A DNA stretch of 64,000 nt from Octopus vulgaris (Eukaryota): contig OX597828.1 in assembly GCA_951406725.2 (NCBI GenBank), positions 69,254,001-69,318,000 on the forward strand. The letters are read 5' to 3'. Below, piece after piece: positions 31,087-62,582 of this stretch. The notes under the pieces are model-generated. The model had not been told where the DNA came from. It saw only the letters and a program-made list of their open reading frames with translations, and did no database searches. The position numbers and the translations under genes were made by a program. Positions within the stretch are counted from its first letter, which is position 1; the number at the start of each line of letters is the position of its first letter.

Positions 31087-31155
<69 letters not shown>

Positions 31156-31279: not shown

Positions 31280-31602
31280 TAACGATTAAATAATTAAATT
31301 TAGAAAAATTAAAAGAAAAGTTTTTTTAAAGGAATATTTGTATAGTGTTCAAATATAAGTGGCATTCTGCCTTTCTCTGTCTCCCTTGTTTTCACTTGTG
31401 TGTTCTTGTGAATGATGAAGCGATCACAAGATCGCATTCACAAGCATTCACAAGAACACACATGAAGCATTCACAAGAACACACAAGTGCAAACAAGGGA
31501 GACAGAGAAAGGCAGAATGCCACTTATATTTGAACACTATACAAATATTCCTTTAAAAAAACTTTTCTTTTAATTTTTCTAAATTTAATTATTTAATCGT
31601 TA

Positions 31603-31642
31603 CAGTTGAAAAGGTCTCAAAATGACCGAAACCCCGGTACTG
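31603..31642 (+). ncRNA. Minimal hammerhead ribozyme, U3-A8 core variant (inverted copy, +2 C in loop 3)
   Basis: CAG-TTGAAAA-GGTC-TCAAAAT-GACC-GAAAC-CCCG-GTA-CTG. Confidence 0.55.
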
Positions 31643-31690
31643 AAATGTTCTTTATAAAATTATTTTAGCATTTTCTATTTTGACTTGTTT

Positions 31691-31811
<121 letters not shown>

Positions 31812-31834
31812 CATATATATATATATGGAGACAT

Positions 31835-31870
<36 letters not shown>

Positions 31871-32534
31871 GAAAACTGAAAGAAGCCTGTCGTATACACT
31901 TATATACTACCTTACGGGCTTATTTCAGTTTCCTTCTATCAAATCGATTCACAAGGCTTTGCTTGGCCAGGGGCTACAGTAGAAGACACTTGCCCAAGGC
32001 GCCATGTAGTGGAACTGAACCCGAAGTTGTGTTTGAGAAGCAAGCTCCTTACCACACAACCACACCTGCATCTATAACCACGCCTGCGCATGCATACACA
32101 CACACATACGCACATACACACATACACACATACACACATACATACATACACACACATACATACATACATACATACATACATACTCACATACACACATACA
32201 TACATGTATGCATACATGCATACATGCATACATACATACATACATACATACATACATACATACATACATACACACAAACACACATACATACATACATACA
32301 TACACACATACATACATATATACATACATACACACATACACACACACATACATACATACATACATACATACGTACATACATACATACATACATACATAAA
32401 TACGTACACACACATACATACATACATACATACACACATACATACATATATACATACGTACACACATACATACATATATACATACGTACACACATACATA
32501 CATATATACATACATACACACATACATACATACA

Positions 32535-32568
<34 letters not shown>

Positions 32569-33063
32569 CATACATACACACATACATACATATATACATA
32601 CATACATACATACATGCATACACACATACATACACACAAACATACATTCATACATACACACATACATACATACATACATACATACATACATACATACATA
32701 CATACATACATACATACATACATACATACACGCACACGCATATATAAATGTTTGTTTTTTTTATGTTCAGTTAGATAAAAAAAACCAATTACCCCATACT
32801 TTTGAAGAATACGAATTATTATCCTTAAAACAAAATAGTGTTGACAATGACTTCGAAATTTCAGCCGCCAAGCCATGGTGGGACTGCCCAATAATGGCTT
32901 GGCTGACCGACAATTGAAAGTCATGTCAATACTGATTTTGCCTAAGAAGTATATATATATATATATTATTAATTACAGACAAAACCACTATTATGCAAAT
33001 CAAACAAAGAAAGACTTAATCCAATACATAAAAAAATTTATATAAATTAAAAATAATTAAGAT

Positions 33064-33112
33064 ATCCACTACGATCGTTTCTTGTCACTTCTATTGACAT
33101 TCATCAGGTGAT
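33064..33112 (-). ncRNA. Minimal type I hammerhead ribozyme motif
   Basis: CAC-CTGATGA-aTGTCA-ATAGAAG-TGACAa-GAAAC-GATC-GTA-GTG with a palindromic loop 3. Confidence 0.6.
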
Positions 33113-33253
33113 TTCAAGACCTACTATGCAATTTTGAACTATGAAGTAGTTTGTCTCTAATTAATATTATATTATATTTTACTATAAAATTGGATTCAAT
33201 CCTAAATTTGATTTTTCCCTGTAAATTTGGATTTATTCCCTAATATTATATTA

Positions 33254-33308
<55 letters not shown>

Positions 33309-33378
33309 CGATTTACGATTTTGTCTATTTTCGGCATATTTGGCATTATAATTTTTTCTTTTTCCCTTGTTTATAAGT

Positions 33379-33453
<75 letters not shown>

Positions 33454-33555
33454 TTATTTATATATATATATATTTTTATTTTTTTATTTATTTATATATA
33501 TACATATATATACACACATATATAAATGTAATTATATATACATATATAAATTATA

Positions 33556-33735
33556 GGCACAGGTGTGGCTGTGTGGTAAGTAGCTTGTTTACCAGCCACA
33601 TGGTTCCGGGTTCAGTCCCACTGCGTGGCACCTTGGGCAAGTGTCTTCTACTATAGCCTCGAGCCGACCAAAGCCTTGTGAGTGGATTTGGTAGACGGAA
33701 ACTGAAAGAAGCCCGTCGTATATATCTATCTATCT

Positions 33736-33800
<65 letters not shown>

Positions 33801-34015
33801 TGTGTGTGTTTGTGTGAGTGTGTTTGTCCCCCTAGCATTGCTTGACAACCAATGCTGGTGTGTTTATGTCCCCGTTACTTAACGGTTCGGCAAAAGAGAC
33901 CGGTAGAATAAGTACTGGGCTTACAAAAGAATAAGTCCCGGGGTCGAGTTGCTCGATTAAAGGCGGTGCTCCAGCATGGCCGCAGTCAAATGACTGAAAC
34001 AATTAAAAGAGTAAA
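33556..34015 (+). mobile_element. Second tRNA-derived SINE family with an internal microsatellite
   Basis: GGCACAGGTGTGGCTGTGTGG..GGTTCAGTCCC head, CCTTGGGCAAGT core and internal (TC)n(TA)n(GT)n. Fragments at ~21200-21480, 30800-31090, 31910-32085 and 53505-53555. Confidence 0.8.
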
Positions 34016-34138
34016 TGCATATTACAAAGATGAAACAAAAAAGGGATTAAATAAATCCAGGCTAATCTTTTCTTAAACACTGTAAGTATCAAACGTGTGG
34101 ATACTGCGTTTTTTCTTTATATATATTCGTAATTACAA

Positions 34139-34172
<34 letters not shown>

Positions 34173-34321
34173 TTATTACATGCATTTATGTATATATTAC
34201 AGAAAGAAAATTCAACTAAATGACTGGAGTATACGGTTCGGCGTTTGTTGCTTAGTAGTTACGTGGTTTTTACATCCAAGAGTTTGGCGGGTTACCGGTG
34301 TTGCGCGTGTTGCTTGCGTAC

Positions 34322-34405
34322 ATTCTCTCTTTTGTTATAGCCTTTGGAGAGACAAATAAAAGAAGGGAAATAAAGAATCGAAAAAAGAAACGAAAATAGA
34401 ATAGA
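34322..34405 (-). CDS. Microexon membrane-protein locus: 84-nt transmembrane exon
   Basis: tttctctttccag | [28 protein letters not shown] | GTACGC, phase 0-0. Confidence 0.6.
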
Positions 34406-34492
34406 CTGGAAAGAGAAACAAACCAAACTCATTAATTTACTGAAATTGACACCTTGGTAGAAACATGGTCCGACAAACGCATATATATAATC

Positions 34493-34562
<70 letters not shown>

Positions 34563-34621
34563 GCACATACATATGTATAAATATAATCATATATATATGT
34601 ATACATATATATATAAATATA

Positions 34622-34680
<59 letters not shown>

Positions 34681-34695
34681 TAGATAGATAGATAG

Positions 34696-34744
<49 letters not shown>

Positions 34745-34745
34745 C

Positions 34746-34792
<47 letters not shown>

Positions 34793-34891
34793 TATATATA
34801 CACACATATATATATATGCACACATATATATATACACACATATATATATATACACACACATATATATATATACACACACATATATATATAT

Positions 34892-34982
<91 letters not shown>

Positions 34983-34984
<2 letters not shown>

Positions 34985-36182
34985 AGGTTAAGTCAAAAGT
35001 TTTTTTCGGATTTTCGTTGGTGATTTTTGGCAACTCGTATCTCCATATTATAACCTTCATTTGATATAACTTGTCCAAACCGTTGCTGGGTTGTTTGTTT
35101 TTTATCTTCGCATATAACATAAGCATTAATCAGTTATTTTACAGCTTTGATAACGGATGGTGAAAAATTAAAAAAAAGATGTGGCAGATTCAGGAACTGT
35201 TAACTAGCGTCTGGCACAAAACATGTTGAGATGCTTCAAGGAAGGTGACATCTGTCTCGAAGACAAAGCAAGGTCAGGGAGACATTCTGCCGTGAAAGAT
35301 GAGACCTTGCTTCAAATGGTTCAACAACACACAATCACAGGCATTCGTACATCATTGACAGAACTTGGTCCTTCACAAAGCACCGTCAATCGACACGCTG
35401 TTGGCAAGTTCCTCATCAAGTGACCAATCACCAGACGCAACAACTGGTGAAAATTTTTGCAGACAGCTGCTGGCAAATCCTCAAGATGCCCGTTTTTTTG
35501 GCCTTGAATTGTAACTAGGGAGGAAGAAATGGATCTATTTTCGTAATCCTAATAAGAGAAATCAGTGGTTTCGTTGTGGACAGACTTCCGAACCTGTTGT
35601 GTGTTTGGTGGAATTTCAAGGGAGTGTTGCACTTTGAGTTTGTCCCAAATGGTCAGGCTTTGAACGCTAACCTTTATGCTCAACGGCCACAATGAATATA
35701 TAGCGCTTTGAAAGCCTGATACTTTGGCATTGGTCAATCAAAGACACACACTACTACAGCATGACAATGCCCCAGCACACACTGCCAATGTGACCAAGTG
35801 CAAAGTTGAGGAATCTGAGGGGCTGGAAGTGCTGTCTCACCCTATCCACAATCCAGATCTTACACCATCAGATTACTACTTTTTCCAAGTCATGGCTCAT
35901 TTCCTGAACGGACGGCGGATCAACAGTGTGGGTGAGGTTGAAAACGGGTGCAGAGAGATTTCGGCCTCTAAACCTGCCAAATGGCATAAGCGTTAAATGG
36001 AGCTTCGGGTATAACGACGACAACAGACAGTAGAATTAATGAGTTGTAGGCACCCAGTATTTCGTTAGGGAGAGAATAGAATACGATAGGATATATTTTG
36101 ATGAATACACGCTTTACAAATGTAATTTGATTGGACAATTAATTAAAGCTTGAAATACGAAAAAGCGTTTGACTCAACCTGG
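34983..36182 (+). mobile_element. Degenerate mariner DNA transposon
   Basis: TA-CCAGGTTAAGTCAAAAG.. / ..GTTTGACTCAACCTGG-TA TIRs. Remnants FKEGDICLEDKARSGR and QHDNAPAH...HPIHNPDLTPSDYYFF. Confidence 0.9.
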
Positions 36183-36193
36183 TAAATACTTAC

Positions 36194-36301
36194 AGCGATT
36201 TTTCGATAACGGTTGACGCCGAATATAAGGAAGGTCAAAAGGATCACAACAATTAACAGCAACAGTACGGAGATGAGGCAAAAAGCAAAATGGATGTGTA
36301 T
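36194..36301 (-). CDS. Microexon membrane-protein locus: 108-nt transmembrane exon (copy 2)
   Basis: tttctctactattacag | IHIHFAFCLISVLLLLIVVILLTFLIFGVNRYRKIA | GTAAGT. Same length, phase and VNRYR motif as 49502-49609. Confidence 0.75.
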
Positions 36302-37084
36302 CTGTAATAGTAGAGAAACAAACAATAAATATAAACATATACACAATGATAACGATAAACAATAAATATATAACGATTTTGAATGGGCAAAATTTGCTTA
36401 GTTAGAACTAAGAGGACTGGTCCGTTGCCATAGATAATGTAGTGGACTATATGAGAGTGTTGTACCTACTTACAGCCAGATGGACGGGACTAAGGTATTA
36501 ACAGTTAAGTGTCATGTTTACGACTCTATAGTCAACAATATCAGAGTGTTGTGTAGACTTTCAGTCAGGTGGACTGATTTGTTGCCAATCAAATCTTACA
36601 TGGAAACAGTACAGTGAATTATGACATATTGTTGTACCTGCTTATGGCTAGGTGGAGTGGGCTATTGGAAGTTCTTGGTCATGGACAGAACACAGAAAGC
36701 CATACCACTTGTAGTTCCCATTGACGGTTAAATGCATTGGTCTGTTGGCAGTTAGGTAACATATTGAAAAACGTATGTTACATTGTGGTACCCACTTAAA
36801 GCTAGATAGACTGGGCCTAGATTGGGAATGAAATCTGATAGGCGTAGACACAGTACAGTGAAGTGTATCACAGTATGCTGCCTATCTCACTCTTTCCACC
36901 TGTTTCTGTTGTACCTGTATTTCAAAGGTCCAGCCTTGTCACGCTGAATCTTCCCGAGAACTACGTTAAGGGTACACGTGTCTGTAGAGTGCTCAGCCAC
37001 TTGTACGTTAATTTCACGAGCAGGCTGTTCCGTTGACTGGATCAACTGGAACCTTCGTCGTAGTAACCGACGGAGTGCCACGAC

Positions 37085-37125
<41 letters not shown>

Positions 37126-37552
37126 TTTCTATCACGGATCAGTACATTATGTATATATGGAGAGAGAGAGAAAGAGAGAGATGATGTTTTCATCCACCAC
37201 GTATCGTTCTGAGGATTAGTCTCTTGGTACACATATCAGTACTTTTCTAGATATGGCTACACACACGTTCATATATTTACTTATTAATATTGATGTAACA
37301 CTATTATATAACTAACAGGTTTATGAAACGGTTGTAAACGAATGGAATAAACACCTACTCCCTCACCTCTCTTCTCTTATCTGTTCTTTGTATATATAAA
37401 TATGAAAAGAAGCAACATCGCATATTAGATTCGAACGCCGTCTCTGCTCTAAACCGTTTACTGTGTGAGCCACTACACTAATGTGACACCATAGTCATTA
37501 GTGTCCCAAATTAATGGACTTTAATTAAATAGCTACAATAATATACCAGTGA

Positions 37553-37750
37553 TAAGGCGGTGAGCTGGCAGAAACGTTAGCACGTCGGGCGAAACCGCTT
37601 AGCGGTATTTCGTCTCTCTTCACGTTCTCAGTTCAAATGCCTTTCATCCTTTCAGGGTCGATAAATTAAGTACCAGTTGCGTACTGGGGTGGATCTAATC
37701 GACTGGCCCCCGTCTCCAAAATTTCGAGCCTTGTGCTTTGAGAAGAAAAG
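37553..37750 (+). mobile_element. tRNA-derived SINE (tail B) with 16-bp TSD
   Basis: TSD AATAATATACCAGTGA at 37537-37552 and 37751-37766. Confidence 0.9.
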
Positions 37751-37813
37751 AATAATATACCAGTGACGTGTAAACGAAGAGTCTCAGTCGACACAATATT
37801 GGAGTTATAGTGT

Positions 37814-37849
<36 letters not shown>

Positions 37850-37919
37850 ATTTCTTTCTCTGTCTGTGTATGTTGTGAGTGGGTTTGTACAAAAGTGCTA
37901 CAAAAAAGTTTATACTTAC

Positions 37920-37934
37920 ATACTCGTCTGTATC
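37920..37934 (-). CDS. 15-nt microexon (DTDEY)
   Basis: gctgttttattgcag | GATACAGACGAGTAT | GTAAGTATAAACT. Donor flank is shared with other microexons. Confidence 0.65.
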
Positions 37935-37990
37935 CTGCAATAAAACAGCAAAGTGAAATATTTAAATTTTGGATATAATTTAATCTATCT

Positions 37991-38045
<55 letters not shown>

Positions 38046-38896
38046 AATGAACCGAGTGAAATAACTCAATTGGCTATTGGCATGTAGTTAAACAACATAG
38101 ATACACACGGGTTACACCAAACACCATACAACATAAATTCTTGACTTATTAAAATCCTCTTCACCTGCAGAAGATCTGCTATAATTGCTGAATGGCAAAT
38201 AAGGTCAGCTCCACATAAGAACAGGAGATAATTACAAGAATCAGGAATTCTTGAATGCTGACTTACCATTAAGGAAAAGGAGAAAGAAAATAAGAGAACA
38301 ATTGTATAACACGTGTTTCTGCCTTGATAAGCGTCATCGATTTGACAATTGTCTCAGTCTATCTCCAGCAGCCAGCCTTCTCATATGGAAGTGTTCTCAA
38401 TTGCTATTTGCTTATTGTGACCCATCGAGGTCTTTGTACTGCTTGCTTCGCCGCTTTATATACTGGGGTCGATTCGTCTTCTTTTTTCTAAGCCTTTCAT
38501 TCGGTCTGTCTATTTCTCTCCTTGTTGAAGTAATCGAGTGGAGTCAGAGTAGGACAAGAATCAACTCTGCCAAGTCTAAAAAATCTCGTAAACAGGCCGT
38601 ACGACACGATGGCACCCTTATATTCTAGCTATCGGGACACAAAGGCATAGCTACGCGCACACACACACACATATATATATATATATACACACACACACAT
38701 ACATGTAATATGGTTTATGTCAGACGAGTGTGAGAGATGTGTCCTTGCCTGAAGATCGCAATTGCGAGAAACTCGAGTCAATTTTTAAAAAAAACTACAC
38801 ACACAAGCACATGCACATAATACATACATACATACATATGTAAACCCGTATATATATATATACGTATACACACACATATATGTGTATGTATATACA

Positions 38897-38935
<39 letters not shown>

Positions 38936-38960
38936 TATATATGTATGTATATACAGTATA

Positions 38961-38999
<39 letters not shown>

Positions 39000-39002
<3 letters not shown>

Positions 39003-40396
39003 TAAAAAGAATTCCAACCTTGTCTGATTTTCACGTTTTATTTACAATCTTATAATGATAATATTATAAGATAATATATTATAATTGAATAAAATAAAAT
39101 GAAATAGTAGAATGTTAAATATTCATTCTGATTGAACTAGTACTTTCATGCATTGAATTCTGCAATCTTCGGGTTCATGTAGTAGTGTTGACAGTCATGC
39201 TTCACAATTTTTGACTGTAGCAAGATGAGTGATTCTGTGCTATAAATACAGCTGGGAAGGCTCCAGAGTGCTAGGTTTTGCAAACTGTATTCTGACCAAT
39301 CAGTGTGTAGTATCACTCAATTACTTAAGCTGATTGGTTGGTTGAGCTGATTGGTTTAGGCATCACGCTTTGTTGGACAGGTCAAGAGTCCTGTATCTTG
39401 ACCCTGGCCGAAGCAGCAATCGTTGGGTTATTTTTAGAAATGTTGTAAATATCCTTTGTCAGAGATTTTTATATTTTTATATTTCAATTGTCATCATCAT
39501 CATTGTCAGCACCTTAATTATTGTTGCTAGTGGTTATGGTGGTGGCAATAGAACTTTTAACCCTAAATAAGATAATTTTCCTGCTATCTTCGTCTTGATC
39601 ACCTTTAGTATTGTTGTTGTTGTTAGTGGTCATGGTCGTAGCAGTGGAAGTAATACCTCTAAGTATTATTATTATTGCTTATTCAGCTTGGGTTCGAATT
39701 TATCAATAAAATTCTTTTCTCTGATTTTCCTCTCGATTTCACTTGGGCTGTGTAATTTGTAGAATGGAAATATTATATATATTTTCCGACCACATGTTGC
39801 TAGGTGGTTACTCAAAGGTATCTGACGGACCTCTGGGTCTCTAATCTGTTGCCGGTGTACACGTGAGCGTTCTAATAGTGCGTTTCCCGTCTGACCTACA
39901 TATATTTCTTCACAATTTGGGCATTTGATGCAGTAAATTAAATTTCTGCTTTTGCAGTTCATATTCGCGTTTGTGAATATTTTCCCGGTTTTTGTGTTTA
40001 TATATTGACCGGTATGTATGAATTGGCATGTGCCACATCGGCTATCATTGCATTTAGATACCGTGAATGTTTGGTCTTTGTTGCTGAGGTCAAATTTTGC
40101 CTTTGTTAGTAATGTTTTCAAGTTTTTAGGCTGTCTTTTACTAAGCACCATAGCTCGATCCTTGATTATGTCTTTTAATTCATTACTTTGGGCAATGATT
40201 GGAAGGTTTGCTTTGGCAATGTTGAAGATATTCTGGTGACATGGGTTGTGTGTCACTATGAATGGTATGACTTGTTCTTGTTTTCCTCTTCCTTGGGTTG
40301 TCCTAAGTTGTTGTATAGGTATTTTTATAGCCCGCTGTATGCCATTTTCTATAAGTAGAGATGGGTATTTTTGTTTGAGCAAAAATTCTCTTAGTT
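39000..40396 (-). mobile_element. 5'-truncated Penelope-like element (Neptune-type) in (TA)n
   Basis: ORF 39672-40382 has a CNDSRCGTC linker and GIY-YIG NLIYCIKCPNCEEIYVGQTG..R..H..E..PKLN. The 3' UTR carries a hammerhead motif. Confidence 0.9.
39133..39177 (-). ncRNA. Hammerhead motif in the Penelope 3' UTR, core mutated to CCGAAGA
   Basis: TGAAC-CCGAAGA-tTGCA-GAATTCAA-TGCAt-GAAAG-TA-CTA-GTTCA. Confidence 0.5.
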
Positions 40397-40413
40397 CTAT
40401 TAGGCGTTTGTTC

Positions 40414-40488
<75 letters not shown>

Positions 40489-41159
40489 GAAATTTATAGA
40501 AAAACAAAAGACGAAGACAGGTGTATGAACAACAAGCAAGTATATTAGTTTGACGCTCGGGGAAATGAAAAGGTCTTTTATATTTCGAGCCTAAGCTCTT
40601 CAACAGAAAGGATGAAGACGAAATAAATAAAGAATGGAAAAACAAAAAATTGTAGATTTCAGCAGTCCAGCATGGTGAAGCATATCTATTTATGTGTGGA
40701 TGTAAATACCCATGGTAAAGATTCTACCCTGTATATGAAAAGAAAAAAAAATTGCAAAAGTTTTATTAGCAGATTTAGCGTTTGTGAACTACAGAAGGGT
40801 ATATATGATGTACCACAGGCATGGTGTAGAGGTGTTAAAATGCAGCTTTGTTAGTAATTAAAGATGAGCAAATGGATAAAAAAAAACCAAGATGCTCAGT
40901 GTGCTACCAAACAGGTGAAAACTATAAAGAAGCTCTTGAGAAATATGCGATGTGCGTTAGTATTAAAATATAGAAAGCGTGTCCGTTCTAGTGCATTGTC
41001 AGAACTATAGTTGAAGACTGTTAGGCTCGTAAGTTCTTACTAAAATAGGGTTTATTAAAGGAGGTGCGCAAGTGTTGTACAGGAGGCAAGGGGTCAGCTG
41101 AACCCTACTAAATTACTAAAACATTTGGTATGAATATAGAAAGAGGAAACACTACATAC

Positions 41160-41171
41160 CTTTCTAAAATC
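41160..41171 (-). CDS. 12-nt microexon (DFRK)
   Basis: tttttattttcttgtag | GATTTTAGAAAG | GTATGT. Confidence 0.6.
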
Positions 41172-41476
41172 CTACAAGAAAATAAAAACAACAGTAATTA
41201 CAATAATGGTTTCAAATTTTAGCACAAGGCCAGCAGTTTCAAGATGGGGAGGGAAAGTCAATTACATCGATCCTAGTACTTAACTGCTATTCATTTTATC
41301 AACCCCGAAAGGGTGAAAGATAAAGTGGTGGCATTTGAACTCAGAGCGTAAAGACCGACCAAATGTCGCCAAGCATTTTGTCCGCCATACTAACAATTCT
41401 ACCAGTTCGCTGCCATAATAATCATAGTAATAATAATAATTATAATAATAATAACAATAATAACAACAACAACAAC

Positions 41477-41559
<83 letters not shown>

Positions 41560-41561
<2 letters not shown>

Positions 41562-42117
41562 GCCCTGATGCAGTACCAGGCAGTGGCTCTCATGGCTTCT
41601 GATCTTAACTGATTGGAAGTGTTACCATGTACATTGCTTTGTCTTGGTATAAAAGATGGGCTACAGCAAATATTCTGCTCAATACCACAGATTTGCTTGT
41701 CAGTTGTTTGACCTTAACCAGTTGAGCATGTCCCTTAGTGGCTGACGATATGTGCATCTCTGATCACGAGCAGAAGTAGTGGGGGAGCATCATGGCCATG
41801 TGTTGGGGGGGGGATTCTTTGGGGTTTGAGTAATTCACCTCTGGAAACATGGGTGGTTCTTTCAACATCCTTAAACAACCCTTATTCAGGGACCGGTTGA
41901 GCGGGATGGGTTACTCAACCTGAAGAAAATTCTAACTGGGCTCCACCTGCAAGGTCATGTGCTGTTTATCTTGATATGAGATCACCATGTCGTGCACATA
42001 TGGTTGTGATGCATGTGCCTAGTGTACCCTTATCAGACGGGTAGTCATGATGGGTATATTGGGCTTCGTATATTTTACCCCAGTGTCACTTTGATGGCAT
42101 GGACTGCTCTCTCACTC
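41560..42117 (+). mobile_element. Non-coding interspersed repeat inserted in (AAT)n
   Basis: Bounded by (AAT)n on both sides. Its 3' part recurs at ~3770-3917 with the same ...ctctcactc-(aat)n end. Confidence 0.65.
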
Positions 42118-42228
<111 letters not shown>

Positions 42229-42252
42229 CATTATTATTATTATTATTATTAT

Positions 42253-42450
42253 GGTATGTGCTGTGATTTGTTGTGATGCTCTGATTGTTACTGTATTGAA
42301 AGTGGTTTTGCGTACACTGCACACATCCTACGCAAAACACTTTCAATACAGTAGCCATCAGAGCATCACAACAAAACACAGCACATACCCAAGGCACACA
42401 GAGCTGCGCTCGGTAGTGAAGTGAAAGCACGCTATAAAAATAAAACTACT
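42253..42450. mobile_element. Head-to-head Dong/R4 3' ends
   Basis: 42253-~42314 is the inverse of ~42328-42389. The right arm matches the 3' UTR at 4938-5072. (TAT)n on the left, (AAT)n on the right. Confidence 0.8.
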
Positions 42451-42451
42451 A

Positions 42452-42530
<79 letters not shown>

Positions 42531-42547
42531 TGCATGCATGTGTATGC

Positions 42548-42600
<53 letters not shown>

Positions 42601-43292
42601 ATATGTTACACACACACACATACATATATGAGTGTATGTTTAATAGTATATATACATATGGGGAACAACCTCTCATTTATACATGTTTCACTGAAAGAAC
42701 GACTATGTTCAAGTTTTATCTTTTATTATTTTTCTTTCATCTTTCTTGGATTTTTGCAGTTAGTTTGGAGCAATAGAGTTTCTAAATCCGTATCCGACCT
42801 TCACAGCCTCATTATTAGGAATTTTATTGAATATATTTGGAGACTGTTATGTTTCTTATATACGGATTGAATTCGTAGAGGCTTTTATTATGGCCTCTAG
42901 CTTTATTCGTCAACAATCGAGTGACAGGTTATGCTAATAGGAAAATATGAAAGATGTCTAAGATTAAAATGATGAAGCTTAAAAATAGCCGTGTATTTAA
43001 TGAAACACGCATCCACAGACTCCGCCACGCACGTACTCACACATACACACACACATATGCAGTCATGTGTGTCATGCTCGTATTTTATACGTCTTATTTC
43101 GAATAAATTGTGTATATTCAAATGTGTGTCTGTATGTTTCGAGTTGTGCGTTTGTGTATGTGTGTATATGTGTGTATATGCGTGCGTGTGCGGGTGCGTG
43201 TGCGTCCGTGTGTGTGTGAGTTTGTGTGTGTGTGGGGTGGGGGGTATGTACAGGTAATGTTAATAAACGAATTTGAAGAAATGTCAACTTAC

Positions 43293-43373
43293 GTTTGCCA
43301 AGAAACAGAACAAACAAAATGAGACAATTGCCAAAATGTCTGCCACAATGACCAGCACCATCAAATGAGTAGC
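43293..43373 (-). CDS. Microexon membrane-protein locus: 81-nt transmembrane exon
   Basis: atttcattgttgtag | ATHLMVLVIVADILAIVSFCLFCFLAN | GTAAGT, phase 0-0. Confidence 0.7.
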
Positions 43374-44233: not shown

Positions 44234-45033
44234 CACATATATATATCATATACATATATATATGTATTGTATGTATATATACAAGTATATATATGTGTTG
44301 TATATATATATATGTAAGTATGTATATGTATGTACACACATACCTCATACTTGAAGGGGAGCGATAGAAAGAGTGAGTGAGAGAGTGAAAAAGAGTATAA
44401 CCCAATATATTTATTAAAGTTCATTTGTAAATAAGGGCCTTCAATCCGACATTATTCCGAGTTTCATTCTTTAATCTTCAACACGTCAACTGGTTGGGTT
44501 ATGGTTCTCTATACAACACCACTTAACAACTCTACAAACGTAGTTTCTCTTTGAGCGAGTTGATTGAGAAATTTAAGGTGGTACAATTCGCTCCTTGGCT
44601 ATTACGAATGATTGAGCAGTAAGGGAATGGTGACAAGACTAGCTGACTTTAACGTTGTTAGTATTGAAGACGTCATTATACCTGTACATTTTAAATATTT
44701 CAACCTAGAAAATAAAGATCCGGAACGAATACTGCAAGGCATTTGAACTCAGAACGTCGAGAAAATGAAATACTGCTAAGCATTAACCTGATGTGCTAAC
44801 GATTCTGCTAGCTCGTCACCTTCTATAAGTAATAATTCTTGGTACTATAGTGGGGGATAGTCGATCACATCGATTCCACTACTCAACTAGTACTTAATTT
44901 ATCGACCCTAAAAGGTTGAAAGGCAAAGTCGACCCCGGTAGAATTTGATCTCAGAAACAGAATAGCGACAGACGAAATGCCAAACATGTCTGCCACAATG
45001 TCCAGCACCATCAAATGAGTCAGCTCACCGCCT

Positions 45034-46316: not shown

Positions 46317-47075
46317 TGTCATGCTGGTTACTTACATTGTCCACAAGGGCCCTCAAGATCTTGAGACCAGTGAGAACGATGACCGAACCGATTATCGCAA
46401 GCTGCAAAGAAATATTTTGAAGAGTAATATGCTTTCTATGAAAGGCACAAGGCCTGAAATGTTGGGGGAGGGAATTGGTCGATTACTCACTGCCTTGTAA
46501 TATCGAAGTGTAATATCAGTATAAACATCTACATGCGTGGTGGTAACTCTCTATGCGCGCTGACACAGCCTGTTAGATATAACAGCCAAATTTTTCTCAA
46601 ACGCTACCATCTTAGCCAAATTCATGGAGTATCTCGGACTGTTCTCACTAGCACACAATAGAATCTCACACCGTCCCTTTGCTTCTTCACTACACGGGTT
46701 GTACACGCGTCTCCAGAGTCACACAGCATAGTATATCTTCGTTACGCACTACATACTTGTCGGACTGACTTCATTGCCAAGTGACACTTCCACACATCAT
46801 GTGATTATTGTCTCAATTCAGTTGCACACAGCTTCTCACCGCCACACACATACATCATGGTCTCCTTACCACAGTCCCACAACACCACACAACCAACGCG
46901 TGTCTACACAACAGGATTCATCCACAATGCCTCTCCATTTCACGTATATGAACTACCTTATAACATGTTACCACTACTACATCGCCCAATAAATGCAGTG
47001 GAGCAAGACAAGAGAGAGAGAAAGGCAGTGAAAGAGGGAAAGAGAAAGGAAAGACGCAAAGAGAAGAACAAAAAA

Positions 47076-48239: not shown

Positions 48240-48395
48240 TAAAAAACAAGAGACCAGTGTCGCGATGAAGAGCCAATGGGAGTAGATGTAGGAAAATATG
48301 AACGTAAACAAACCAACGAGGGCCGTGGTCAATCCCGAGAAGATTATGAATTTGTAAGGAAAATCTTTGCAAGCTGCTGCAGCCTGGAAAGAAAT
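48240..48395 (-). CDS. Microexon membrane-protein locus: 156-nt (or 144-nt) two-TM exon
   Basis: ctattgcag | ISFQAAAACKDFPYKFIIFSGLTTALVGLFTFIFSYIYSHWLFIATLVSCFL | GTAAGT. An alternative in-frame acceptor tttctttccag lies 12 nt inside. Phase 0-0. Confidence 0.7.
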
Positions 48396-49501: not shown

Positions 49502-49609
49502 GGTCGTCTCCCGATATCTGTTGACGATATATATAAGGTAAATTGAGACGAGGACACCAATGAAAAGGGATATCGCTGATACGAGGCTCAAAATAAAATG
49601 GTCATCAAT
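49502..49609 (-). CDS. Microexon membrane-protein locus: 108-nt transmembrane exon (copy 1)
   Basis: cttatttttacag | IDDHFILSLVSAISLFIGVLVSIYLIYIVNRYRETT | GTACGT, phase 0-0. Confidence 0.75.
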
Positions 49610-50365: not shown

Positions 50366-50474
50366 GTATGTATGCATGCAAGCAGTCACCCGTCTATTTC
50401 CCTACATCTATGAGAGAAATATCAACATTTATTCTTTGTTATTCGAGAAGTATTGACGGAAAGTTTATACTTAC

Positions 50475-50486
50475 ACTAACATAAAG
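50475..50486 (-). CDS. 12-nt microexon (LYVS)
   Basis: ttttctcgtttcag | CTTTATGTTAGT | GTAAGTATAAACT. Confidence 0.7.
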
Positions 50487-50531
50487 CTGAAACGAGAAAA
50501 TAGCAAAGGAAAAATTAATATACTTTCAAAT

Positions 50532-50587
<56 letters not shown>

Positions 50588-51545
50588 AATACACACATAC
50601 ATACACACATACATACGCACACACGTGTATTTATGTTTGTTTATATATATATACACATAAATGTACGTAGGTAGGTAGGTAGGTAGGTATGTATGTGTGT
50701 GTGTGTGTTTGACTGAAAAGCACCAAAGCATGAAATATATAGTTGAAAATTTAATTATGTTGAACATGTGTTTCATTAGTATAAACATCGTTAATTTTAT
50801 AATTACGTAATTATGATGCAAGATTAATTTAAATCAATCTATAATAACTTAACTTAAAAGTTATGCTTAGATAAATCTCAGGGAATATGTTATATGCAAT
50901 GAAAAATGCATTGAATTTTAGCGGCCTGGTGCTAATAAAGCCTCTCATTACTGTGGCTATATTTTTTGCTGCTTACACTCAATTCTCTTTATATAAAGGC
51001 TTCAGGTGGAATCTCTAGAAAATTGTACTCATTATGCATGAAACCATTGGTAGCATTCTAATTTTACCAACAGCAAATATATTTATCCGCCAAATCAGAC
51101 TCCATTGTGTTGTGGCACGGTTTTTACAGCTAGATTCCCTTCCTAATGCCAAATACTTTACAGAGTGCCTTCTATGTGGCACCAGCGCTGATAACTGTGG
51201 TTGTGAAATGGGGTCTCCCAGAACCTTCTGTTCCGCTAGAGGTCGCATGCAGCAGCGATACCTATATCAACTATGTGAACATGTAGGATTGATTGATTAC
51301 TGTTTTGCTGTCTACATTCATTTTGAATACTCACATGTGAGTATACGTGTGAGTACACTATGAACACGCACGTGTGAGTACAAAAAATTATTATTTGGTA
51401 GCTTTTTCTCAAAATTAAATGCTGTACGAAATATCCCCTTTTTTATGAATGTTTAATCATTTTTTTCCCCTCTATTAATTATTGGCGATTACGTGCTGAG
51501 AATTCTTTATTATAGCAGAATTGTTAACAAATTGTTTGTACTTAC

Positions 51546-51557
51546 GGCAGCCTTAAC
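51546..51557 (-). CDS. 12-nt microexon (VKAA)
   Basis: atttctcatttcag | GTTAAGGCTGCC | GTAAGTACAAAC. Confidence 0.7.
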
Positions 51558-51674
51558 CTGAAATGAGAAATATGTGAAATTAATAATTCAAAGAATCAAA
51601 ATCATGTTGAAAACGTTCATATTTAAAATGTCAACTGGTACAGAAGCACAGAGACAACATACATACAGATATAA

Positions 51675-52244
51675 TTTCTACTGTAGGCACAAGGCCTGAA
51701 ATATTGGGGGAGGGCGGCCAATCGATTAAATCGATCCCAGTACGCAACTGGTACTTAATTTATCGACCCTGAAAGGATGAAAGGCAAAGTCAACCTCGGT
51801 GGAATTTGAACTCAGAACGTAAAGGCAGACGAAATACCTATTTCTTTACTACCCACAAGGAGCTAAACACAGAAGGACAGACAAACGGATTAAGTCGGTT
51901 ATATCGACCCCACTGCGTAACTAGTACTTATTTAATCAACCCGAAAGGATGAAAGGCAAAGTCGACCTCGGCGGAATTTGAACTCAGAACATAGCGGCAG
52001 CGAAATACCTATTTCTTTACTACCTACAATCGGCTAAACACAGAGATAGGACAAACAAAGACAGACAAACGGATTAAGTCGATTATATGGACCCCAGTGC
52101 GTAACTGGTACTTATTTAATCGACCCCGAAAGGATGAAAAGCAAAGTCGACCTCGGCGGAATTTGAACTCAGAACGTAGCGGCAGACGAAATACCGCTAA
52201 GCATTTCGTCCGGCGAGCTAACGTTTCTGCCAGCTCGACGCCTT
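51675..52244 (-). mobile_element. Trimeric SINE (head-body-tailA-body-tailA-body-tailB)
   Basis: Three bodies, with both internal junctions reading taaagaaata-GGTATTTCG on the minus strand. Confidence 0.85.
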
Positions 52245-52459
52245 ACATACATACAGATGTAGCACATAAAACACACAGGTACATATACATATATACATAC
52301 ATGGACACACATGCTTACACATACACACACGTACATATATATCATGCATATATACATCCGCCATATGTGTGTACATATATGTGGGTCTATGTGTGTATGT
52401 ATGTATGTATGTATGTGTGTACATACCTACATACGTATGTACCTATGTACTTCTTTTTC

Positions 52460-52700
52460 TCTTTTTAATTGAGAGTATTTTGACCGGTCACTCACTGACT
52501 TGGTAGTAAGGTTGTGAAGGAAAGTCTCATCCTTTAAATCTTTGTAAAGCTTGTACATTTTTATAGTCCTCAATATCATGATCCTCTGTAGTGTATGAAT
52601 TAAGGATTTGCATGCTCTCCCCAAGATCCCAAGTTCAGCCATGCTTTGCTCCAGACAGGTCGGTATGTATCCTGTTGCTCCAATAATTATAGGTATGAAT
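52460..52700 (-). mobile_element. R4-like LINE 3' fragment
   Basis: PIIIGATGYIPTCLEQSMAELG...LQRIMILRTIKMYK endonuclease-type C-terminus. Confidence 0.55.
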
Positions 52701-53430
52701 GGCCCTGTATTTTCCTAACTACACTGGTGTCCAGAGAGCAGCTGATTAATTTATTTATTTTGTATGTAGGTTTGTATGTATAATATAAGTGGAACAAACA
52801 GGAGAGACATTATTCATTACATTAGTTTACATAAATTTCTAATGAGCAAGATGGAGCCAAACATTAACGTCCGGTGAAATAGGCTTGATAATTGTTAAGA
52901 GACGTACTTCTCTGAACATGAAACCATCAGTAACCTAGTAAATTAACAAATAAAAAGTATTTATGTACGTACCTACATCTACATGTATATATACATGCAT
53001 ATATAAGTATATATACGTGTGTACAGGACACCACAAATAGACGTAGAACTCAACGAGAAACGAAAACGTAAAAACGAAAACGTAAAACTCAACGAGAAAC
53101 GAAAACGTAAAAACAGCATGGAACGGACCATTTTTTTAACAACGAAAAAAACAGAGTACAAGACAATTACACAAAGAAAAATCCCCTTCATCAGCTGTCC
53201 CTAGTTCAACTCCAGCGTGTTTCGAAGGTGAGGACAGAACACGTCTCGTCGAACTAATCCTTCCTGCGAAAGAATTAACTAAAATTCCTTTGCAGAGGGG
53301 TAAAAACAAGGAAAAAAATGTGACAAAAACAGGACGTAAAAACAATACAATTAAAAACAAATAAAAATAAAAATACAATTACAAAAAATACAGTACAAGA
53401 AGGAATAGAAACAGGACAGGAAAAATATAT

Positions 53431-53501
<71 letters not shown>

Positions 53502-53660
53502 TATACGACAGGCTTCTTTCAGTTTCCGTCTACCAAATCCACTCACAAGGCTTGGGACGTAACTCATTCTGAATAAGTAACAAAGAATACTGACTTTCGC
53601 AATTGTCTGTCACGTTTTAATCGTAATTTTCGAGATTATTAATAAAGATTTTATAATTAC

Positions 53661-53672
53661 CTCATCGTTAAC
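53661..53672 (-). CDS. 12-nt microexon (VNDE)
   Basis: ttattgccatttcag | GTTAACGATGAG | GTAATT. Confidence 0.7.
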
Positions 53673-53824
53673 CTGAAATGGCAATAAATAAATAAATAAA
53701 TATATGAATAAAAAATAAAATGAAATAAATAAATATATTAAAATAAATGATTTAACAATCAATATATTTGTTTAATATGTTCTCAGTTGTAAGTATACAC
53801 AAATGCAGAGCCACAGAGATACAA

Positions 53825-53825
<1 letters not shown>

Positions 53826-53859
<34 letters not shown>

Positions 53860-54436
53860 CAAACACGCACACACACACACACTAACAAACACGCACACAG
53901 ACGAACACACACACACACACACACACACTAACAAACACGCACACAGACAAACACACACACACACACTAACAAACATGCACATAGACGAACACACACACAC
54001 ACACACTAACAAACACGCACACAGACGAACACACACACACACACACACTAACAAACACGCACACAGACGAACACACACACACACACACTAACAAACACGC
54101 ACACAGACGAACACACACACACACACACACTAACAAACATGCACATAGACGAACACACACACACACACTAACAAACACGCACACAGACGAAACACACACA
54201 CACACACACACTAACAAACACGCACACAGACGAACACACACACACACACACACTAACAAACACGCACACAGACGAACGCACACACACACACACTAACAAA
54301 CACGCACACAGACGAACACACACACACACACACTAACAAACATGCACATAGACGAACACACACACACACACACACACACTAACAAACACGCACACAGACG
54401 AACACACACACACACACACTAACAAACACGCACACA

Positions 54437-54472
<36 letters not shown>

Positions 54473-54610
54473 CAAACACGCACACAGACGAACACACACA
54501 CACACACTAACAAACACGCACACAGACGAACACACACACACACACACTAACAAACATGCACATAGACGAACACACACACACACACACACACTAACAAACA
54601 CGCACACAGA

Positions 54611-54650
<40 letters not shown>

Positions 54651-54708
54651 CACAAACACGCACACAGACGAACACACACACACACACTAACAAACACGCA
54701 CACAGACG

Positions 54709-54742
<34 letters not shown>

Positions 54743-54808
54743 CAAACACGCACACAGACGAACACACACACACACACACACACACACTAACAAACACGCA
54801 AACAAACG

Positions 54809-54842
<34 letters not shown>

Positions 54843-54882
54843 CAAACACGCACACAAACGAACACACACACACACACACACA
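53826..54882. repeat. Minisatellite CTAACAAACACGCACACAGACGAA(CA)n
   Basis: More than 20 units of ~38-48 bp with a variable CA tract. Confidence 0.95.
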
Positions 54883-54943
54883 AAAGAAGGCGTGAATAAG
54901 CAATATAAAACCCCAAAAGAAAAGTTCAGTTGTCACTAATTGC

Positions 54944-54980
<37 letters not shown>

Positions 54981-55263
54981 AGAGTTTGACATTAAACTGG
55001 AGGATGTCTCAGTGCTATTTAGTATCCAGCCTGTTCTCCTTCAGCAAACAGTCTGATGGAGGAAAGCAAACGGCAACTTTGAAGACTCATTTTGTCTTAT
55101 TCAAAGAATTCTATTTCTCCGAATAAGTGAAATAGACGGTCGGTGTCAAGGGAGGTAATTCTCATGAGCTTAACAATTCATTACGTACGAGTTACGTCTC
55201 ATTACACCTATTGCTCGGTCATCCCTTGACACGTATTATTATTACTATTATTATTATTGATAA

Positions 55264-55660
55264 CTAGCAGTATCGCCCGGCGTTGTTCGGATTTGTAAGG
55301 GAAATAACTATATAAGCATTTTTAGAGAGTTATAGCCAAAATTAGCAAAAAAATGCATTAAAAATGGAAAAAAAATTATGGTAAATTTTTTTTTTAAATC
55401 GTTGACTCATCGTAGACATTTTTAGAGAGTTACTTCCCTTATATAATAGCGAAAAAATGCATTAAAATGGAAAAAGATGATGGTAATTTTTTTTTAAATC
55501 ATAGACTCATCGTAGACGCGCGCTAATACCCAGACGGGCTCGATATGAATCACGACTATAAGATACCCTGTTTTGGTTAAACTGCACCGCAAAATGTGGG
55601 AGTAGTTAGGAATCTAAATCGTAGGAGACAGACACACAACTTGACTTTTATATATAAAGA
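55264..55660 (-). mobile_element. Non-autonomous Helitron-like element (second copy)
   Basis: Reverse complement of 22311-22709, with the same TC...CTAG ends between A and T. Confidence 0.8.
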
Positions 55661-55700
55661 TTAAGTATTACAGAAATGTTGGCGAAGAGTTTATACTCAC

Positions 55701-55712
55701 GACATCGTTAAA
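55701..55712 (-). CDS. 12-nt microexon (FNDV)
   Basis: atttctcatttcag | TTTAACGATGTC | GTGAGTATAAACT. Confidence 0.7.
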
Positions 55713-56039
55713 CTGAAATGAGAAATAATGAAATATACTTAAAAAAGAGGAAATTATTAATTATATACATAAATAAAATGAATATATTTTACAATCAATA
55801 CAATTTTTGATACCTGCAAATGCATACACGCACGCACACACATACACATAATTAAGTATTACATATGGCCTAATTCCTAGGATGTTCCAGTCGCGATAGC
55901 AAGGACATAATTTCGATTCCCCGAACCGGGCCGCATGTTGTGTTCTTGAGCAATACCCTTCATGTCAATAATGTCACATGTTACCACATTTGTTTGCAAG
56001 TAGGTAACCCTCTGTTTTAAATTTTCCGGGTTCATAGGA

Positions 56040-59079: not shown

Positions 59080-59091
59080 CGTGCCAAAATA
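59080..59091 (-). CDS. 12-nt microexon (YFGT)
   Basis: attattatatttcag | TATTTTGGCACG | GTAAGT. Confidence 0.65.
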
Positions 59092-59503: not shown

Positions 59504-59548
<45 letters not shown>

Positions 59549-59675
59549 GTAAAGTGTGAAAAAACGACAGAAGGCTTAAATGTTAAAAAATATATATATT
59601 TGTGTTAAAATGTCTGGAGAATATTGGAAAAATTTTTTTTCCTTTCCTTAAAATGACATAATTTTAAAATTTTTA

Positions 59676-59715
59676 AAGAAATTACCGGTTTCGCGTGTAG
59701 CTTTTCAAATTTCTT
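59676..59715 (-). ncRNA. Minimal hammerhead ribozyme, U3-A8 variant, in the Penelope 3' UTR
   Basis: Reverse complement of 62369-62408. Confidence 0.7.
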
Positions 59716-59873
59716 GTGACGTTATGTTTATATTGCATGGAGTTATCGTTGTTTTTATTTCCAGGAGATTTCTAAATAAGGGGAGGTAGTGAGTGATTTC
59801 TTCCGGTGTAAGGGAGATAATCGCTTAAAAATTATTTTTTATTTATTTATTTATTTTTTTTCCCTTTTCCTTG

Positions 59874-61265
59874 TTAATTTCTCTGTGTCAGTATGTTCGG
59901 ATGGTTGAGTCTGGGTTTGTACTTTTCAATGAAGAATGTTTCCTTGTTCAGTCTCATTTGTGTTGATGATCCGAAAGCACATTGGTAAAATGGGAAGATT
60001 AAAAATTGTGGCAGTAGTTGCTTTGCGCATTTCTCAATGTGCTCACTAAAAGGTATCATTCTATATTCTGGGAATGCAATCTGTTGTCGATGCAGTGTGC
60101 ATCTACGCCTGAATGATAGTCCCGTGGAACCCACGTAGTCTTGGTGGCAGCCCGAGCATTTAATAACATAAATTATGTTTTCAGAGGCACAAGTAAAGTT
60201 AGATTTGATCTTAAATTTCTGTCCCTCTTTAAAGAAGAATTCTGATCCTTCCAATAGGTTAGGACATGTTGCACAGTTCGATCTACCACATTTTTTTACT
60301 TTTGCATCCGTAATTTTAGAAGACAATTTTGCCTTTGTGAGAATCTTTTTAAGTGATTTAGGCTGTTTGTAGCTTTTAATGATTTGGTGTATGTTTAGAA
60401 TTTCCTTTAATTTTGGGTTTTTATGAAGTATTGGTAAATTCTGGGTGATGATGGTGAAGGATTCTTTGTTTCTGGGGTTGTATGTAGATATGTAAGGTAG
60501 TATTTTCGGGGAGGGTGTGTTGTTGTGTTGAACTTTTCTTAAAGTTTCTATATTGATTTCTGTTGCACGTCTGATCCCATCCTCTATGAGTTGAGCTGGG
60601 TAATGTCTGTCAATTAGGGTGTTTTTGAGTTCTTGCAGTCTAAAGTTCCTGGTATTTTGTTCTGACACTATTGTGCATATCCTTCTTGCAAGGTTGAAGG
60701 GGATGTTTGTTTTAGTGTGTCTTGGGTGGCATGAATTAAAAAGAAGGTATTGTTTGGCGTCTGTGGCTTTGTAAAAAATGTCTGTTTCTATTTTAAGGTT
60801 AATTTTTTTAATTAGTATATCCAAGAACGGGAGCTCCTTTTGGTTGTATTCCATTGTGAACTGTATATTTGGGTTTATGCTGTTCAATAGGTTTTTAAAT
60901 TTTAGGAGTTTATCTATGTTTTCATTCCAGAGAATGAAACAATCGTCTAGGAATCGTTTCCAATTCTCTTTTATGTATTGAGAGAGGGAGTTTCCAAAGA
61001 TTGATAGAGATTCCTGGTAAATGATTATTTCCATGTATCCCATTGTTAAGTTCGCAATGACTGGTGCTGCCCTTGTACCCATAGCAATTCCGGATTTTTG
61101 ACGGTAAAATGTATTGTCAAACATGAAGTGGTTATTGTGTAGGATGAATTCAATTGATTTAGTAATGAATTCCTTACTGATCCTTTTTGGTATTTCTTCC
61201 GGAAATTGGTCTAACCAGAATTGTATTGCCTCCAGTCCATAATTATGAGGTATACTGGTATACAA
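59874..61265 (-). CDS. Penelope RT + GIY-YIG endonuclease, 5'-truncated
   Basis: SFDVVNLYTSIP, GIAMG, RFLDD, LPFLD RT motifs, CGRSNCATC linker and NIIYVIKCSGCHQDYVGSTG GIY-YIG. Confidence 0.95.
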   Translation of the reverse strand: MYTSIPHNYGLEAIQFWLDQFPEEIPKRISKEFITKSIEFILHNNHFMFDNTFYRQKSGIAMGTRAAPVIANLTMGYMEIIIYQESLSIFGNSLSQYIKENWKRFLDDCFILWNENIDKLLKFKNLLNSINPNIQFTMEYNQKELPFLDILIKKINLKIETDIFYKATDAKQYLLFNSCHPRHTKTNIPFNLARRICTIVSEQNTRNFRLQELKNTLIDRHYPAQLIEDGIRRATEINIETLRKVQHNNTPSPKILPYISTYNPRNKESFTIITQNLPILHKNPKLKEILNIHQIIKSYKQPKSLKKILTKAKLSSKITDAKVKKCGRSNCATCPNLLEGSEFFFKEGQKFKIKSNFTCASENIIYVIKCSGCHQDYVGSTGLSFRRRCTLHRQQIAFPEYRMIPFSEHIEKCAKQLLPQFLIFPFYQCAFGSSTQMRLNKETFFIEKYKPRLNHPNILTQRN

Positions 61266-61383
61266 GTTGACTACATCAAATGAAACCAGGATTGTTTTTT
61301 CCTTGGTTTTTTTTTGGAAGGTGGTTTGACATATCTAAGTCATCTCTGATATGGCTACTTATGGACATCCTCTTGAAACCCTT

Positions 61384-62209
61384 CCTTCAACCTTGCAAGA
61401 AGGATATGCACAATAGTGTCAGAACAAAATACCAGGAACTTTAGACTGCAAGAACTCAAAAACACCCTAATTGACAGACATTACCCAGCTCAACTCATAG
61501 AGGATGGGATCAGACGTGCAACAGAAATCAACATAGAAACTTTAAGAAAAGTTCAACACAACAACACACCTTCCCCGAAAATACTACCTTACATATCTAC
61601 ATACAACCCCAGAAACAAAGAAGCCTTCACCATCATCACCCAGAATTTACCAATACTTCATAAAAACCCAAAATTAAAGGAAATTCTAAACATACACCAA
61701 ATCATTAAAAGCTACAAACAGCCTAAATCACTTAAAAGATTCTCACAAAGGCAAAATTGTCTTCTAAAATTACGGATGCAAAAGTAAAAAAATGTGGTAG
61801 ATCGAACTGTGCAACATGTCCTAACCTATTGGAAGGATCAGAATTCTTCTTTAAAGAGGGACAGAAATTTAAGATCAAATCTAACTTTACTTGTGCCTCT
61901 GAAAACATAATTTATGTTATTAAATGCTCGGGCTGCCACCAAGACTACGTGGGTTCCACGGGACTATCACTCAGGCGTAGATGCACACTGCATCGACAAC
62001 AGATTGCATTCCCAGAATATAGAATGATACCTTTTAGTGAGCACATTGAGAAATGCGCAAAGCAACTACTGCCACAATTTTTAATCTTCCCATTTTACCA
62101 ATGTGCTTTCGGATCATCAACACAAATGAGACTGAACAAGGAAACATTCTTCATTGAAAAGTACAAACCCAGACTCAACCATCCGAACATACTGACACAG
62201 AGAAATTAA
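61384..62209 (+). pseudogene. Inverted partial Penelope ORF (thumb + GIY-YIG) with a 1-nt frameshift
   Basis: ORFs 61416-61787 and 61757-62209 repeat the C-terminus of 59874-61265. One A is missing at ~61735. Confidence 0.9.
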
Positions 62210-62368
62210 CAAGGAAAAGGAAAAAAAAAATAAATAAATAAATAAAAAATAATTTTTAAGCGATTATCTCCCTTACACCGGAAGAAATCACTCACTACCT
62301 CCCCTTATTTAGAAATCTCCTGGAAATAAAAACAACGATAACTCCATGCAATATAAACATAACGTCAC

Positions 62369-62408
62369 AAGAAATTTGAAAAGCTACACGCGAAACCGGT
62401 AATTTCTT
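62369..62408 (+). ncRNA. Minimal hammerhead ribozyme, U3-A8 variant
   Basis: AAGAAAT-TTGAAAA-GC-TACAC-GC-GAAAC-CG-GTA-ATTTCTT with a 7-bp stem I and palindromic ACCGGT. Confidence 0.7.
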
Positions 62409-62582
62409 TAAAAATTTTAAAATTATGTCATTTTAAGGAAAGGAAAAAAATTTTTCCAATATTCTCCAGACATTTTAACACAAATATATATATTTTTTAA
62501 CATTTAAGCCTTCTGTCGTTTTTTCACACTTTACTATTTTTTTATATATTCACCCACGTGCTTTACCAAACAAACTTTCTTA

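Follow-up and report, generated by a model that had tools for sequence, protein, structure and literature searches.

Four 12-nt microexons follow one another on the minus strand of a poorly annotated gene of Octopus vulgaris, and their resemblance raises the question of how such short exons originate and whether the copies started out as alternatives or as additions to one protein. The exons lie in a stretch of 64,000 nucleotides (the window; positions 69,254,001-69,318,000 of its contig, in a 2.8-Gb genome), which was examined together with the 200 kb past its right end, 264 kb in all. Positions above 64,000 continue the window numbering (contig position = position + 69,254,000). The reading favoured here, with a probability of roughly 0.7, is that five frame-preserving exons, the four among them being old tandem duplicates, are all included and together build a hairpin of 20 residues that joins helix 3 to helix 4 of a predicted two-domain membrane protein. 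The locus may thus serve as a test case for the origin of microexons and for an additive as opposed to an alternative start.

Gene structure

All exons were located with P0002 (GAB1605237.1), a predicted Argonauta hians protein of 325 aa. The resulting model comprises 16 exons on the minus strand, all with AG/GT ends and in phase 0, and encodes 326 aa (Table 1); joined, it aligns to P0002 with 168/329 identical positions. P0002, like P0001, comes from gene prediction, and the comparison with Argonauta is one of proteins rather than of exon structures. Within the 264 kb, no strong AG-N3-30-GT site occurs on the plus strand, and the minus strand has 10, of which 9 correspond to model exons. The introns that separate the microexons measure 1,059-3,367 nt and are all in phase; introns at this locus are rich in repeats. 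A single gene with three repeats of three helices each was considered and discarded, as the Argonauta proteins showed that every domain has two further exons and that the paralog described below ends in a last exon of its own.

Table 1. Exons and flank motifs of the two-domain gene and its upstream paralog (window numbering, extended beyond 64,000)
Feature	Position	Strand	Support
Paralog exons 1-3	117126-116965, 115872-115807, 111971-111891
Paralog 9-nt microexon ATS	107761		included in P0003
Paralog 9-nt microexon AMT	102173		included in P0003
Paralog 9-nt microexon AIT	96489		putative, splicing from sequence alone
Paralog microexon VYYT	94277		putative, splicing from sequence alone
Paralog exon	91579-91469
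Paralog last exon	88357		matches end of Argonauta P0004
Domain 1 first coding exon	69402-69235, ATG at 69390	-	guided by Argonauta P0002
Domain 1 exon	66911-66846	-	guided by Argonauta P0002
Domain 1 exon	64860-64780	-	guided by Argonauta P0002
12-nt microexon YFGT, opens domain 1 loop, other flank type	59080..59091	-	4/4 to Argonauta block
Flank motif ACAATCAATA, upstream flank in cassette of 55712	55791..55800	+	motif search
12-nt microexon FNDV TTTAACGATGTC	55701..55712	-	splice sites; O. vulgaris prediction; 3/4 to Argonauta YNDV
Flank motif ACAATCAATA, upstream flank in cassette of 53672	53755..53764	+	motif search
12-nt microexon VNDE GTTAACGATGAG	53661..53672	-	splice sites; O. vulgaris prediction; 2/4 to Argonauta VNNS
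12-nt microexon VKAA GTTAAGGCTGCC	51546..51557	-	splice sites; O. vulgaris prediction; 1/4 to Argonauta IKKD
12-nt microexon LYVS CTTTATGTTAGT	50475..50486	-	splice sites; O. vulgaris prediction; 2/4 to Argonauta LYLT
Domain 1 exon of 108 nt, predicted helix 4, ending VNRYRETT	49502..49609	-	16/36 to Argonauta
Domain 2 exon of 156 nt, predicted helix 1 and first part of helix 2	48240..48395	-	26/52 to Argonauta
66-nt exon, remainder of predicted helix 2, domain 2	46336..46401	-	10/22 to Argonauta
Domain 2 exon of 81 nt, predicted helix 3	43293..43373	-	14/27 to Argonauta
12-nt microexon DFRK, opens domain 2 loop, flank type shared with 59091	41160..41171	-	2/4 to Argonauta
15-nt microexon DTDEY in the domain 2 loop, with the flank type of the four	37920..37934	-	2/5 to Argonauta
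Domain 2 exon of 108 nt, predicted helix 4	36194..36301	-	RNA-like contigs in 4/4 runs; 26/36 to Argonauta
Probable final coding exon, 23 aa plus stop codon, inferred	34270..34341	-	6/23 to Argonauta

In domain 1, the five blocks YFGT-FNDV-VNDE-VKAA-LYVS make up the predicted loop that links helix 3 to helix 4. Their Argonauta counterparts (YFGT YNDV VNNS IKKD LYLT) stand in the same order without an indel, 12/20 residues being identical, and across the block frame 0 alone is open, the other two frames meeting stops. The first microexon in each loop of the gene (59091 and 41171) has a flank type different from the common one; after it come four microexons of the common type in domain 1 and one in domain 2. 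The O. vulgaris protein prediction CAI9734193.1 contains FNDVVNDEVKAALYVS, in which the four microexons are joined in gene order, but omits 59091 and drops or misreads other exons; P0001 lacks 59091 and two large exons. No convincing candidate was found for an extra 9-nt exon in domain 2 matching KAD of Argonauta.

An original prediction, made from the letters of the window, had described the four microexons and their flanks, an observation that is confirmed. The acceptors and donors of the four microexons are those it quoted, and its positions do mark the exons, although they denote the donor end of each and not the acceptor, as labelled. The flank motif ACAATCAATA recurs near 53755 and 55791 as it had noted, with no further copy in the 264 kb on either strand, and the three exons it called related are identical at 8-9/12 positions (5/12 for 50486). 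Its choice of 37934-37920 as a fifth exon of the set does not hold: this exon sits in domain 2, four large exons and one microexon downstream. The actual fifth exon of the loop is 59091-59080, which that set lacked.

Probable origin of the microexons by duplication

The claim that the four microexons share intronic flanks was examined by aligning the flanks, and is borne out most clearly on the donor side. From +7 to +36, 108/180 positions are identical over the six exon pairs, against 54.5±6.5 for a null drawn from 173 AT-rich donor-like sites (214 before repeat copies and microexon copies were removed), and 0/100,000 draws reach 108. A shuffle null gives 57.6±6.0, likewise with 0/100,000 draws. 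An initial null in which SINE copies were kept (p=0.078) was inflated by those copies and was redone. Acceptor flanks are less clearly alike (p=0.026 over all pairs, 1/6 pairs under 0.05). The sequence shared by each pair is short (60-137 nt at 71-77% identity), which suggests that the duplications are old. When two cassette patterns were searched genome-wide, 5/6 and 5/7 matches fell at this locus (0 and 1 match for the reversed patterns). On this showing, the cassette is no dispersed repeat. The flank homology, the confinement of the patterns to the locus and a young example in the upstream paralog together support the tandem duplication of an exon-plus-flank cassette that had been proposed, and the four microexons likely descend by old tandem duplications from one microexon with its flanks. 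In a tree of nine cassettes of the same type 0/6 branches were supported, and the order of duplication was not recovered.

The young example lies in a single-domain paralog ~40 kb upstream of the two-domain gene; the O. vulgaris prediction P0003 contains its exons ATS and AMT. Its three 9-nt exons occupy tandem units of ~5.6 kb that differ at 45/6,016 and 85/5,574 sites (0.75-1.5%). Within the exons 3/9 sites vary, each change altering a residue, compared with 12/565 non-microsatellite sites of the flank (binomial P=7e-4); windows that include microsatellites give values of 0.001-0.04. Such an excess of exon change hints at diversifying selection on the paralog cassettes, a suggestion drawn post hoc from three changes in one assembly. 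Two ages of microexon birth by tandem duplication would stand side by side at the locus: an old set, with flanks ~72% identical and peptide blocks common to Argonauta, and a young set, with cassettes 0.75-1.5% apart and residues already different.

Inclusion of the microexons

Four runs, from four studies with two organism labels, were compared with positions 35100-38800; the sequences matched are assembled contigs whose RNA nature is presumed. One long contig per run (4/4) contains exon 36301-36194 internally, with 910, 910, 912 and 910 nt upstream of it. From the acceptor of the first coding exon, and with all seven microexons, the model measures 813 nt. The 97 nt left over would belong to a 5' UTR, and the sum fits full inclusion without proving it; a search for a 5' UTR exon found collinear conserved patches but fixed no exon. 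Two contigs of 1,211 nt extend 193 nt beyond exon 36301-36194 and, counted from 34341, end inside a GT microsatellite, which agrees with the proposed last exon (34341-34270). Other contigs, of lower depth (4-23 versus 37-271), continue past the donor at 36194 and enter the intron. The contigs thus have a single dominant length in 4/4 runs, although they cover no microexon junction and would lose minor isoforms.

The original prediction had envisaged interchangeable modules, with up to 32 combinations of five skippable exons, or mutually exclusive exons. Since the Argonauta blocks are ordered and free of indels and the contigs have one dominant length, joint inclusion is likelier than the 32 combinations, which are disfavoured also by the O. 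vulgaris prediction, and mutual exclusion is unlikely. Combinatorial skipping like that of schistosome micro-exon genes (MEGs) is, on balance, rather improbable. The full form would be dominant, and each microexon would be skipped at a real rate or in some tissues, giving several loop lengths. Any subset of five 12-nt phase-0 exons stays in frame, the GTAATT donor of microexon 53672 is weak, 59091 is missing from the O. vulgaris prediction, and minor forms would be invisible in contigs. These points are set against the single dominant upstream length in all four runs, the number and order of blocks retained in Argonauta, and the small share of the microexons in the coding sequence, just 87/981 nt (9%; seven exons of 12-15 nt, all phase 0).

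It is very improbable that each transcript takes one of the four exons: they are tandem duplicates, and three are related in sequence (8-9/12), but both predicted proteins, that of Argonauta and that of O. vulgaris, contain the copies together, and the length and common phase of the introns mean that exclusion is forced by neither crowding nor frame. Least credible of all is that the four are unspliced intronic look-alikes or a dispersed repeat, for although the contigs show no microexon junction directly and the introns are repeat-rich, the patterns are confined to the locus and the peptides match Argonauta without a gap.

Predicted protein and family

AlphaFold models P0002 alone as eight long helices (pLDDT 49.5), and domain 1 of the Argonauta protein, with an 8-row alignment, as four helices (pLDDT 64). 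In the latter model, the microexon block completes helix 3, forms a turn of 7 residues and begins helix 4. The protein is accordingly predicted, with low to moderate model confidence, to consist of two four-helix membrane domains, and the basic NRYR after helix 4 suggests that the helix 3-4 loop faces outward. Amphipathic periodicity of the loop, assessed by hydrophobic moment, was not significant (shuffle p 0.14 and 0.09).

Searches for known relatives assigned the protein to no family. Pfam returned 0 families for P0002 at E<=1, CD20 profile included, a PDB sequence search with the A5 profile had no match at E<=10, and Foldseek on both models found none at E<=0.001; at its rank 15 (E 8.9) stood 8k7t_B, one of the chains in the Fc epsilon RI complex. 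VIA-align retrieved common helical bundles and hairpins, with no MS4A among the best 50; its best match (Z 11.5, rmsd 4.1, 139 aligned) is an unrelated helical bundle. ESM Atlas neighbours scored 0.88 for the whole protein (rank 2) and 0.84 for domain 1 (rank 1 of named clusters), and 52% of members in those clusters carry CD20; with scores <0.9, an MS4A/CD20 identity is a lead only. A Bax-inhibitor/Lifeguard likeness, presumed from motifs, was set aside as lacking Pfam support.

Among 1.84 billion representatives, five matched at E<=0.001. Four are from Octopus or Argonauta, and the fifth, P0005 (1,416 aa, 21 stretches), is repetitive sequence and was judged unrelated; 0/289 candidates for shorter relatives of P0002 passed. 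At the search sensitivity used, the family looks restricted to octopods, with squid or other molluscan relatives possible. The locus would reveal an apparently expressed octopod membrane-protein family, given the presumed RNA nature of the contigs, that current O. vulgaris predictions misread.

A possible course of evolution

Because all exons are in phase 0, a duplicated cassette adds 3-4 residues and leaves the frame unshifted. Under joint inclusion, a phase-0 cassette could have been copied repeatedly without damage to the frame, each copy lengthening the helix 3-4 hairpin by about one helical turn (3-4 residues), and the copies would later have specialised by position. In the paralog the loop has 13 residues, against 20 in domain 1 and 9 in domain 2; its length would then be fixed by evolution through copy number and not by a choice in splicing. 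The variable loops of MS4A receptors bind ligand or partner; by analogy with such tetraspans, it might be guessed that the hairpin lies outside and contacts ligands or partner proteins. A bolder proposal, tentative and on present evidence unlikely, is that of an octopod-specific receptor family that tunes an outer binding hairpin in steps of one helical turn, by repeated duplication of 9-12-nt cassettes, with positive selection on the newest copies and possibly tissue-dependent skipping. If true, it would place a micro-exon diversifier inside a multi-pass receptor of a free-living mollusc.

Comparison with known systems

Microexons regulated by neural Srrm/eMIC are included specifically in neurons. 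Among main texts and abstracts, no paper on the octopus gene was found; within the same scope, PMC11703226 and bioRxiv 10.64898/2026.09.05.749416 do not treat it.

In schistosome MEGs, according to the main text or abstract of the sources, ~80% of the coding region lies in exons of 6-36 bp (PMC5825161), and the products are mostly secreted, carry a signal peptide and are varied through alternative splicing (PMC5825161, PMC10526429). As far as those texts go, the likeness comprises runs of symmetric short exons, duplicated exon patterns, exposed products and signs of diversification (PMC5825161, PMC10526429). The octopus gene has seven symmetric exons within the 6-36 bp range (12-15 nt, phase 0), but they form 9% of its coding region instead of ~80%, are confined to one loop per domain of a predicted multi-pass membrane protein, and are likely included together. 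With the MS4A/CD20 tetraspans (PF04103), whose four membrane helices leave both termini inside, the protein shares four predicted helices per domain and a longest loop between helices 3 and 4; it differs in having no Pfam hit and two domains in tandem. Tandem duplicated and mutually exclusive exons, as outlined in the main text or abstract of PMC9741552, are likewise adjacent homologous exons born of tandem duplication. Whereas mutually exclusive exons contribute one copy per transcript, the octopus copies, of 9-12 nt, occur together in two predicted proteins and are apparently additive.

Gene-derived copies and neighbouring elements

The 3' end of the main gene recurs as a distant partial duplicate, which matches positions 28537-42987 of the window at 85-93% identity and retains microexons 41171 and 37934 together with the helix-4 exon. 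The latter carries an in-frame TGA, and the duplicate is likely a pseudogene fragment. On a smaller scale, the SINE copy listed in the table bears, in place of its own head, ~35 nt that almost exactly reproduce the beginning of exon 43373-43293, which lies 1.6 kb away; the arrangement resembles the outcome of a templated insertion, or of conversion, acting locally. Beyond donor 36194, the frame stays open for 16 residues before a stop; read-through might provide a second C-terminus, or might represent pre-mRNA or DNA.

Features of the main gene and its surroundings (plain positions, window; G000:C15, contig containing the window; L-numbers, stretches outside it)
Feature	Position	Strand	Remarks
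SINE copy with swapped head	44985-45020	-	
Read-through past donor 36194	36143-36194	-	minor contigs
Retroelement region	59534-62549		intron between microexon 59091 and exon at 64860
GIY-YIG fragment	39675-40400		
Compound (GT)n-based minisatellite	53826-54882		between microexons 55712 and 53672
Exon with zf-C2HC_2 zinc finger	1400-1600	+	E 2.9e-9
Piece similar to zf-C2HC_2 exon	about 2930-3077	+	
Partial duplicate, main gene 3' end	G000:C15:62,059,700-62,073,100 (L025, L034-L036)	opposite	7 Mb off
Single-domain paralog	G000:C15:69,342,000-69,371,200 (L004-L007)		microexons 9, 9, 9, 12 nt
220-nt segment, two copies	L002:5909-6128; G000:C15:69,374,865-69,375,084		upstream of both paralogs

The retroelement, presumably Penelope-like, has an ORF matching RVT_1 (59874-61334; E 1.7e-6), and its region includes an inverted 1.2-kb duplication (99% identity). 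The minisatellite comprises 25 copies of a ~40-nt unit. The zinc-finger exon and the similar piece downstream belong to a neighbouring gene on the strand opposite to the main gene.

In the upstream paralog, each of the three 9-nt microexons lies within a young tandem cassette of ~5.6 kb. These microexons differ at three of nine exon sites, and every difference alters a residue. The two copies of the 220-nt segment are 97% identical, whereas the exons of the paralogs are much less alike; the shared segment reflects either a recent repeat or gene conversion.
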